Positions 30,892-32,631 of a DNA stretch of 64,000 nt are shown in pieces. This DNA is from Escherichia coli. Its GTDB lineage: Bacteria > Pseudomonadota > Gammaproteobacteria > Enterobacterales > Enterobacteriaceae. Under the pieces are notes generated by a model that saw nothing but the letters and a program-made list of their open reading frames with translations, was not told where the DNA came from and did not search any database. The DNA is taken from assembly GCF_013315695.1 (NCBI RefSeq), contig NZ_CP054353.1; one strand, 5' to 3'. Positions within the stretch are counted from its first letter, which is position 1. Every line of letters begins with the position of its first letter. A program made the position numbers and the translations under genes.

Positions 30892-31148
30892 ATGAATAAG
30901 TACTGGCTGTCAGGAATTATTTTTCTTGCCTATGGAATGGCTTCTCCCGCGTTCTCTTCACAGACTGCCACATTAACGATTAATGGCAGGATCAGTCCCC
31001 CAACATGCAGTATGGCTATGGTTAATGGTCAACCTCAACAGCATTGTGGTCAGTTAACGTATGATGTTGATACCCGTCATCAGGTTTCTTCGCCAGTCAA
31101 AGGTGTAACGACAGAAGTGGTTGTTGCAGGTAGCGATAGCAAACGTCG
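30892..31148 (+). pseudogene. yehE: yehE, 3' end truncated by IS1 copy B
   Basis: ORF 30892..31170 has a signal peptide then runs into the IS1 left end, which supplies the last codons and the stop. Confidence 0.65.
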
Positions 31149-31203
31149 GGTGATGCTGCCAACTTACTGATTTAGTGTATGATGGTGTTTTTGAGGTGCT
31201 CCA

Positions 31204-31479
31204 GTGGCTTCTGTTTCTATCAGCTGTCCCTCCTGTTCAGCTACTGACGGGGTGGTGCGTAACGGCAAAAGCACCGCCGGACATCAGCGCTATCTCTGCT
31301 CTCACTGCCGTAAAACATGGCAACTGCAGTTCACTTACACCGCTTCTCAACCCGGTACGCACCAGAAAATCATTGATATGGCCATGAATGGCGTTGGATG
31401 CCGGGCAACAGCCCGCATTATGGGCGTTGGCCTCAACACGATTTTACGTCACTTAAAAAACTCAGGCCGCAGTCGGTAA
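31204..31479 (+). CDS. insA: IS1 InsA
   Basis: Identical to the other copies. Confidence 0.9.
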
Positions 31480-31901
31480 CCTCGCGCATACAGCCGGGCA
31501 GTGACGTCATCGTCTGCGCGGAAATGGACGAACAGTGGGGCTATGTCGGGGCTAAATCGCGCCAGCGCTGGCTGTTTTACGCGTATGACAGGCTCCGGAA
31601 GACGGTTGTTGCGCACGTATTCGGTGAACGCACTATGGCGACGCTGGGGCGTCTTATGAGCCTGCTGTCACCCTTTGACGTGGTGATATGGATGACGGAT
31701 GGCTGGCCGCTGTATGAATCCCGCCTGAAGGGAAAGCTGCACGTAATCAGCAAGCGATATACGCAGCGAATTGAGCGGCATAACCTGAATCTGAGGCAGC
31801 ACCTGGCACGGCTGGGACGGAAGTCGCTGTCGTTCTCAAAATCGGTGGAGCTGCATGACAAAGTCATCGGGCATTATCTGAACATAAAACACTATCAATA
31901 A
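31398..31901 (+). CDS. insB: IS1 InsB
   Basis: Identical to the other copies. Confidence 0.9.
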
Positions 31902-31967
31902 GTTGGAGTCATTACCTAAATAGGCTTGATGAAAGTTCTATTTCTATATTTTTCAATATACAAATTT

Positions 31968-31995
31968 CCCCAAAAACGGCGTGAATATCACGCCG
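31968..31995 (-). terminator. Intrinsic terminator for the 94-aa ORF
   Basis: cggcgtg-atat-cacgccg hairpin followed on the minus strand by ttttt. Confidence 0.55.
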
Positions 31996-32000
31996 ATCAA

Positions 32001-32285
32001 TCATACTTCAGAACACATACTCAATGTGTAAACAGCCATCTCTCCATCGGGATTAGAAGGGCGTAATACAAATATCGGTATACTGCCATTGTCAATGTAT
32101 GTGGCTGCAACCCCTCCGTCAGGTGTAGCATACAAATCAAGTCCTTCACAAAACTCTTTTGCCGTAACCTTTTTAAGATGGTCAGCATATTTGATCATCT
32201 GGAGGTGCATTTCCATCGTTTGGCTATTTCGTGGTGCGCTGCTAATGGCTTGCTTAATGTTCTCGTAGATCTGGGTTTCTGTCAT
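32001..32285 (-). CDS. Hypothetical 94-aa protein of unknown function (orphan gene divergent from thiM)
   Basis: Clean ORF (MTETQIYENIKQ…) with its own terminator and an AT-rich upstream region carrying a perfect palindrome; I do not recognise the family. Confidence 0.5.
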   Translation of the reverse strand: MTETQIYENIKQAISSAPRNSQTMEMHLQMIKYADHLKKVTAKEFCEGLDLYATPDGGVAATYIDNGSIPIFVLRPSNPDGEMAVYTLSMCSEV

Positions 32286-32316
32286 TGTTTATCCCACCTA
32301 TCAAATTTAGAAAAAT

Positions 32317-32338
32317 AATATTAATTAGCTAATTAATA
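32317..32338. promoter_or_regulatory. 22-bp perfect palindrome atattaattagctaattaatat, candidate operator
   Basis: Perfect dyad symmetry read directly; lies about 32 bp upstream of the 94-aa ORF start. Confidence 0.4.
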
Positions 32339-32494
32339 TAATCAATGGTTTTCACCATCTGAATGATAGTCGCTAATTGTTTCTTTTTCATTCCTTCTAT
32401 GGGGTACAAAATGGGGTACACAGAGAAGAAGCAATTAATGGAGGCGAGCTTGCATCTGCAAGCCACTTCCCCTAAGCTGGCACAAAATATAGAG

Positions 32495-32631
32495 ATTCAA
32501 CCAAACGACTCGGGGTGCCCTTCTGCGTGAAGGCTGAGAAATACCCGTATCACCTGATCTGGATAATGCCAGCGTAGGGAAGTCACGGACCACCAGGTCA
32601 TTGCTTCTTCACGTTATGGCAGGAGCAAACT
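32495..32631 (+). promoter_or_regulatory. TPP (THI-box) riboswitch in the thiM leader
   Basis: Contains ggggtgcccttctgcgtgaaggctgagaaatacccgtatcacctgatctggataatgccagcgtagggaa, the classic thiM THI-box, directly upstream of the thiM start. Confidence 0.85.

Follow-up and report, generated by a model that had tools for sequence, protein, structure and literature searches.

Small dimeric autoregulators of the helix-turn-helix type are well known from type II restriction-modification (R-M) systems, where the C proteins act on palindromic boxes in their own promoter upstream of the restriction genes. Genomic islands at the 3' ends of tRNA and tmRNA genes carry a tyrosine integrase at one end, and a duplicated segment restores the target RNA gene. 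The regulator closest to the locus described here is the RMS-proximal transcriptional regulator RptR of EPEC E2348/69, which forms homodimers and serves as autorepressor in a defence island (Zhang et al., Nucleic Acids Res 2025, PMC12255303; PDB 9R2Z). RptR binds the 6-bp palindrome TAGCTA and tolerates TAGATA, TATCTA and TATATA (PMC12255303). In EPEC its sites form 9-bp direct repeats located -58 to -31 from the start codon and overlapping the -10 box, and two sites are needed for full repression (PMC12255303). Helix α4 contacts the DNA through residues T57-K61, L69, A72 and L74 plus E25 take part in dimerisation, and both α4 helices of the dimer are inserted in a single major groove over 6 bp (PMC12255303).

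The window, i.e. the whole 64-kb stretch of E. coli DNA that was analysed, has the gene order metG, mrp, yehE (with its 3' end cut), IS1, the locus under study (31917-32494), TPP riboswitch, thiM, thiD, yegX and yegW (features in the table). A sequence-only reading had proposed that the locus is an autonomous small cassette with an acquired or unannotated function, built around a 94-aa minus-strand ORF. This ORF is present and starts with ATG, and a Shine-Dalgarno-like motif, GGTGGG (32293-32298), lies 7 nt 5' of it. The DNA upstream is AT-rich as had been noted, with a G+C content of 25% in the 115 bp from 32286 to 32400 versus 52% for the whole window. In K-12, rcnR is located directly upstream of thiM; comparison of the window ORFs with the K-12 order found no rcnR, rcnA or rcnB between yehE and thiM, and the ORF does stand in the expected place of rcnR. 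Its lack of resemblance to CsoR/RcnR was also borne out, with no family found in an NCBIfam scan and HTH_73 as the sole Pfam match. The exact 94-aa sequence (WP_174183221.1) is on record in one E. coli genome; it exists in NCBI, although a search for contigs encoding it did not find it as a called gene. The locus is already explained as the remnant of a known rptR gene with a known operator, not as a new function: with high confidence, it represents a decayed island end which holds a deletion-made chimeric rptR pseudogene together with an RptR operator.

Table. Features of the rptR/thiM island end in the window, and allowed RptR sites upstream of rptR homologues
Feature	Position	Strand	Basis
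IS1 copy, 768 bp	31149-31916	+	insA/insB ORFs, ends read
Last 7 nt (T AAA TAG) of HNH endonuclease gene	31917-31923	+	alignment with MS 21-1
Intrinsic terminator	stem 31977-31995, U-tract 31972-31976 (31967-31995)	minus	fold
94-aa ORF, ATG start	32001-32285	minus	ORF list
Chimera 3' part, codons 49-94 and stop	32001-32141	minus	residues 61-62 and 73-115 of 115-aa protein
Chimera 5' part, codons 1-48, RptR N-terminus (helices α1-α3 only)	32142-32285	minus	Pfam HTH_73, 789 homologue, PDB 9R2Z
22-bp perfect palindrome ATATTAATTAGCTAATTAATAT, predicted RptR operator	32318-32339		TAGCTA at centre
Candidate rptR promoter 1	TTGATT 32340-32345, 16-nt spacer, TAATAT 32318-32323	minus	by eye
Candidate rptR promoter 2	TTCAGA 32358-32363, 17-nt spacer, TATATT 32335-32340	minus	consensus scan
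Tandem TGGGGTACA repeats, 12-bp register	32400-32408 and 32412-32420	+	3 in window vs 0.28 expected
attR, 82-bp thiM TPP aptamer segment	32498-32579	+	alignment of K-12 empty site, 789 attL/attR and window
thiM TPP riboswitch	32501-32597	+	Rfam RF00059, 71.2 bits, E 2e-13
Allowed sites, O157:H7 SS52	-45, -27 from ATG
Allowed sites, AST85	-46, -28 from ATG
Allowed sites, MRE162	-56, -47, -29 from ATG
Allowed sites, Buttiauxella	-56, -47, -29, -20 from ATG
Allowed sites, Pseudoalteromonas (L008, L011)	-49, -40, -31 from ATG; L008 also -93

Comparison with other strains assigns positions 31917-32497 (581 bp) to the right end of a tyrosine-integrase defence island. The idea of acquired DNA is thus well founded: this end of an integrative island is present in about 10% of complete E. 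coli genomes, and about 560 E. coli genomes have kept the segment, at an identity of 85-97%. The intact island of E. coli 789 begins after rcnR with a TPP-riboswitch copy, tyrosine integrase, HNH endonuclease, 115-aa and HTH genes, and continues with a serine recombinase gene, three small ORFs, a 79-aa HTH-like gene and a second TPP-riboswitch copy, followed by thiM. Between the 60-aa ORF and the serine recombinase gene of this island there is an unannotated gap of about 1.8 kb (L003 4800-6565). The cargo differs among strains and includes an HNH type IV-like endonuclease, GmrSD, SIR2 and others; the HNH endonuclease was assigned by PADLOC to mREase_IV (1.3e-23), and the HNH ORF of MS 21-1 ends with PVNK and the stop codon. 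For strain 789, a supplementary table of Hochhauser et al. 2023 has the entry "rcnR-thiM" for an island with RM_type_IV; beyond this table entry, no description of an integration site at thiM or the riboswitch aptamer was found in the searchable literature.

Intact islands have a copy of an 82-bp aptamer segment, CAACCAAACGACTC...GCGTAGGG, at either end, and are thus flanked by two annotated TPP riboswitches (L003 10511-10606 and 2778-2874; L001 3684-3779 and 6612-6708). The window keeps attR only, whereas the integrase gene and attL are present in 789 and MS 21-1. Over the collection, the rptR/attR end was found in about 560 genomes and this integrase by an aptamer copy in 168. The riboswitch of the window is intact, with island DNA as its 5' flank. 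The aptamer copy on the integrase side retains K-12-type upstream DNA, which places a thiamine-sensing aptamer about 66 nt 5' of the integrase gene. Like the islands at tRNA and tmRNA genes, the thiM island has a tyrosine integrase placed at its end, direct repeats of a structured RNA and a reconstituted target. Unlike them, its target is a riboswitch aptamer with an 82-bp repeat, the reconstituted copy before thiM has island DNA upstream, and attR alone is retained in the window. The tandem TGGGGTACA repeats near the island end are kept in other islands, with a single copy in O157, and GGTACAAAA, which is similar to TGGGGTACA, occurs just upstream of the integrase start at attL. These repeats may be arm-type sites of the integrase.

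The left edge of the island remnant is formed by IS1, which ends one base before position 31917. The sequences flanking IS1, CAAACGTCG and TAAATAGGC, show no 9-bp target duplication, which points to a deletion associated with IS1. The element abuts the remnant of the HNH gene on one side and the truncated yehE on the other, and the island remnant stands in place of rcnR as a result of this deletion; the IS1 deletion scar suspected at this place can therefore be recognized. Judged by the gene order of intact islands and K-12, the deletion is taken to have removed the 3' end of yehE, yehD-A, rcnBAR, attL, the integrase gene and the HNH gene. Since rcnRAB and the yehABCD fimbrial genes are lost, the strain is predicted to lack RcnA-mediated Ni/Co efflux. 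Within yehE (30892-31148) the last codons are cut by IS1.

A sensitive profile search of the 94-aa protein gave a confident match to RptR/HTH_73 for the N-terminal half only. Residues 2-51 match positions 1-50 of the 71-position Pfam model HTH_73 (PF24718) at E 1.4e-17, identity to PDB 9R2Z is 65% over 51 aa (33/51), and a profile built from 30 homologues matches PDB 9R2Z at E 6.5e-43. This half belongs to a characterised family (RptR, PDB 9R2Z), and the proposal of an unannotated function is not upheld. A search for PF24718/HTH_73 by name returned nothing relevant in the searchable literature, and the RptR paper was linked through the match to PDB 9R2Z. Members of HTH_73 are strikingly conserved across Gammaproteobacteria and are typically 79 aa long. 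In Pseudoalteromonas (L008-L011, 6001-6240) rptR homologues lie 33 bp 5' of a type I hsdM-hsdS operon, and the loci are found beside GmrSD, SIR2 and FtsZ-like/cREC genes. Among the Buttiauxella and food metagenome loci (L012-L014), Buttiauxella has rptR 49 bp behind a DUF6538-type tyrosine integrase; the element is satellite-like and has a capsid gene. Together, the Pseudoalteromonas and Buttiauxella contexts suggest that rptR recurs at the ends of mobile elements by integrases, not only at R-M systems.

Residues 1-48 of the ORF are identical to residues 1-48 of the 79-aa RptR homologue of E. coli 789, and residues 49-94 derive from the C-terminal part of a 115-aa signal-peptide protein unrelated to RptR (WP_000737406.1, phrog_35183), whose N-terminus MKKLVFAALLIPVMGHATTFS is signal-peptide-like. 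This second parent has no significant match in Pfam, and PADLOC has no families for either the 79-aa or the 115-aa protein. PHROGs likewise splits the ORF into phrog_30666 (residues 1-53) and phrog_35183. With tblastn, residues 1-54 of RptR and residues 72-115 of the 115-aa protein (97.7% identity) abut in the window, and no intact copy of either parent was found in the 64 kb. The breakpoint inside the ORF is also seen in the DNA alignment with MS 21-1 and W13-16. From these alignments, the 94-aa ORF is an in-frame fusion of two gene fragments and the presumed product of an internal deletion.

Both halves occur as separate genes in other E. coli genomes, which speaks against an autonomous cassette. 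In 789 the two parent genes share strand and island and are separated by about 4.8 kb (L003 3090-3329 and 7858-8205). An intermediate is carried by E. coli MS 21-1 in the form of a 103-aa in-frame fusion, made of residues 1-48 of the 79-aa protein and residues 61-115 of the 115-aa protein. The first junction joins GAAGG to ACTTG with a microhomology of 1-2 nt. Homologous recombination between paralogues was considered as the cause of the fusion and rejected, as the parents are unrelated and the junction microhomology is so short. Compared with the 103-aa form, the allele of the window lacks another 27 bp, lost between two TGTA repeats (junction at about 32133-32135), and such an event would be typical of slippage.

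When 5,426 complete E. coli genomes were searched with megablast, three covered the whole locus and all three have the extra 27 bp, so that the 27-bp-deleted allele was present in none of the 5,426. About 560 genomes match window positions 32143-32494, annotated as "HTH-like domain-containing protein" and adjoining the thiM riboswitch. The segment 31917-32134 is found at 99.5% identity in many E. coli genomes, annotated as "hypothetical protein | HNH endonuclease". At an identity threshold of at least 99%, megablast gave 66 records, and among the matches listed all correspond to this 31917-32134 segment. The 103-aa precursor fusion is recorded on at least 350 contigs, the commonest 103-aa sequence being on 350.

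This abundance could be read as the sign of a functional new gene, for example a constitutive small protein with a role other than repression, all the more since the frame stayed open through two successive deletions and the promoter, Shine-Dalgarno motif and terminator are intact. Such a function is very unlikely. Each fragment is a partial domain, i.e. three of the four RptR helices and the last approximately 45 residues of a secreted protein without its signal peptide, and each deletion had a prior chance of one in three of keeping the frame. The 103-aa form was found in E. coli only and with nearly identical DNA, which fits clonal descent, and NCBI PGAP labels the fusion of MS 21-1 a pseudogene. 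In addition, the dimer-interface mutant L74R of RptR could not be recovered after purification, for which destabilisation was suggested by its authors (PMC12255303).

The reading as a chimeric pseudogene is further strengthened by the position of the breakpoint. In an AlphaFold2 model of the 789 RptR homologue (pLDDT 93.7) the helices span residues 3-16, 19-32, 42-49 and 55-71. Homology of the ORF to RptR ends at residue 48-51, so α1-α3 are kept and α4 is absent. The family-invariant residues S54-N64, L69, K70, A72 and L74 are all located past the breakpoint. Among them are the DNA-contact residues T57-K61, of which E58 and K61 are invariant; their positions in the fusion are filled by sequence derived from the 115-aa protein. 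From the dimerisation residues E25, L69, A72 and L74 only E25 is kept. With helix α4 and the invariant residues lost, we infer that the fusion protein can neither form the RptR dimer nor bind DNA, and would not repress.

The locus shares with the EPEC system the N-terminal 48-51 residues (100% identical to the 789 homologue and 65% to 9R2Z), the hexamer TAGCTA 41-46 bp 5' of the ATG, where it overlaps a candidate promoter, and the setting of a mobile defence island. It differs in that the gene is cut before α4 and has a tail from an unrelated gene, and in having one canonical site versus three in EPEC. There is also no adjacent type I R-M system in the window, where terminator and IS1 follow the ORF directly, and the parent island has an HNH type IV-like endonuclease, deleted here. 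The C proteins have no sequence relationship to RptR, and, unlike these autoregulators, the RptR copy of the window is predicted to be inactive.

The palindrome upstream of the ORF is perfect over 22 bp as had been described, but lies one base to the right of the position first given (32317-32338). It extends to 14+14 nt at 93% complementarity. At its exact centre stands TAGCTA (32326-32331; -46 to -41 from the ATG), which is the experimentally defined site bound by RptR homodimers, and its distance from the start codon is as expected. The proposal of an operator for a dimeric regulator is therefore a sound one, and very probably the palindrome has this role. The unit recognised is predicted to be the central 6 bp, of which the window copy holds only one canonical site.

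Two other origins of the palindrome have to be weighed. AT-rich spacer DNA can produce palindromes and ORFs by chance, and the region has only 25% G+C, with TAGCTA not enriched in the window (4 found versus 6.4 expected). Against chance, ATATTAATTAGCTAATTAATAT is unique in the window and no match to the 22-mer was obtained in 100 shuffles, even with 3 mismatches. Together with the conservation in about 560 E. coli genomes and the solved homologue of the N-terminal half (PDB 9R2Z), this effectively refutes a chance origin, which has a negligible probability. The palindrome could also serve recombination in the attR arm, as an integrase-arm, excisionase or IHF site, instead of being an RptR operator, in view of its distance of about 160 bp from the att core, the AT-rich DNA and the nearby arm-like TGGGGTACA repeats. 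Such a role is very improbable, since arrays of TAGCTA/TATCTA lie equally distant upstream of rptR in Pseudoalteromonas, with no integrase or att site within 6 kb, and the central hexamer equals the experimentally mapped site of RptR (PMC12255303).

The predicted operator was compared with the 120-nt upstream regions of rptR homologues in independent contexts. Sites of the allowed set (TAGCTA, TAGATA, TATCTA and TATATA) occur two to four times in the promoters of O157 SS52, AST85, MRE162, Pseudoalteromonas and Buttiauxella, lie as far from the ATG as in the window, and are spaced by multiples of 9 bp, the far -93 site excepted. Only one is present in the lineage of the window, MS 21-1 and W13-16, and also in strain 789. 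Three palindromic sites at 9 bp with symmetric AAT/ATT spacers produce an extended palindrome round the middle site. Three substitutions separate the window/MS 21-1/W13-16 lineage from the O157-type sequence; through them the 22 bp are perfectly symmetric, and the outer positions (TATATT, AATATT and TTTCTA) fall outside the allowed set. W13-16 combines the identical perfect palindrome with an RptR whose C-terminal half is intact. The 22-bp symmetry exceeds what the 6-bp site needs, and could hint at a lineage-specific change of the operator.

Both candidate promoters of rptR overlap the predicted operator. The consensus scan returned 2 sites versus 2.2 expected, which is not significant alone; a TTGAYT-like hexamer precedes the site array in most homologous rptR promoters. 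The intrinsic terminator reported after the ORF was found as well. It begins 5 nt past the stop codon and consists of an 8-bp stem with 6 G-C pairs, a 3-nt loop and UUUUU, with a folding energy of -13 kcal/mol (z = -2.1). In many E. coli genomes this DNA follows the 115-aa gene, which indicates that the terminator is originally that of this parent gene. A bidirectional terminator was considered and discarded, as the + strand has no T-run after the stem.

On these grounds the following course of events is proposed. In intact islands rptR, encoding the 79-aa homodimeric autorepressor, would be transcribed inward from a promoter overlapping the TAGCTA-type array. Loss of about 4.8 kb inside the island, at a microhomology of 1-2 nt, would have joined codon 48 of rptR in frame to codon 61 of the 115-aa gene, giving the 103-aa ORF with the stop codon and terminator of the latter. 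Slippage between the TGTA repeats would then have shortened the ORF to 94 aa by 27 bp, and the IS1-associated deletion would have taken the rest of the island and neighbouring chromosomal genes. As the fusion would neither dimerise nor bind DNA, repression of its promoter is probably lost, unless the genome encodes a further RptR elsewhere. The outcome would be a short terminated transcript and perhaps an unstable protein without function. A clean-looking small gene with promoter, operator and terminator can thus be the by-product of deletions in a decaying mobile island, and caution is advisable before such ORFs are called new cassettes. With its repressor apparently destroyed and the operator kept, the locus offers an independent natural example of the RptR operator.

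More interesting than the ORF is the island context, in which defence islands integrate in the thiM TPP aptamer and displace what lay upstream of thiM. K-12 has, as read by eye, a promoter-like sequence 5' of the aptamer, TTTACA-17-TACCAT. In intact islands this segment stays at attL, before the aptamer copy and the integrase gene, and neither the window nor O157:H7 SS52 (L004 7060-9345) has it. In its absence, thiMD would have to be transcribed from island-end DNA or, here, by read-through from IS1. No convincing + strand promoter for thiM was found between 32340 and 32500, and the sole good + strand -10 element, TATAAT at 32337-32342, has a poor -35 and overlaps the predicted RptR operator. 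A sigma-54 reading of TGGCAC (32479-32484) was rejected, as no TTGC occurs at the required spacing.

It is conceivable, though rather doubtful, that the rptR promoter/operator block at the island end also supplies the promoter of thiMD. If so, a promoter of a mobile element would drive thiamine-synthesis genes in about 10% of E. coli, possibly in an RptR-sensitive manner and in series with the TPP riboswitch. A family of defence islands would then attach at a riboswitch aptamer, and in its intact members the integrase gene would be preceded by the native thiM promoter and an aptamer copy.

Between the TGGGGTACA repeats and the att core, a hairpin, GCTTGCA-TC-TGCAAGC, is located at 32448-32463. 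In the divergent island end of MRE162 its stem is conserved and the loop is different. Conservation within the island end is highest from there to the att core (32464-32497).
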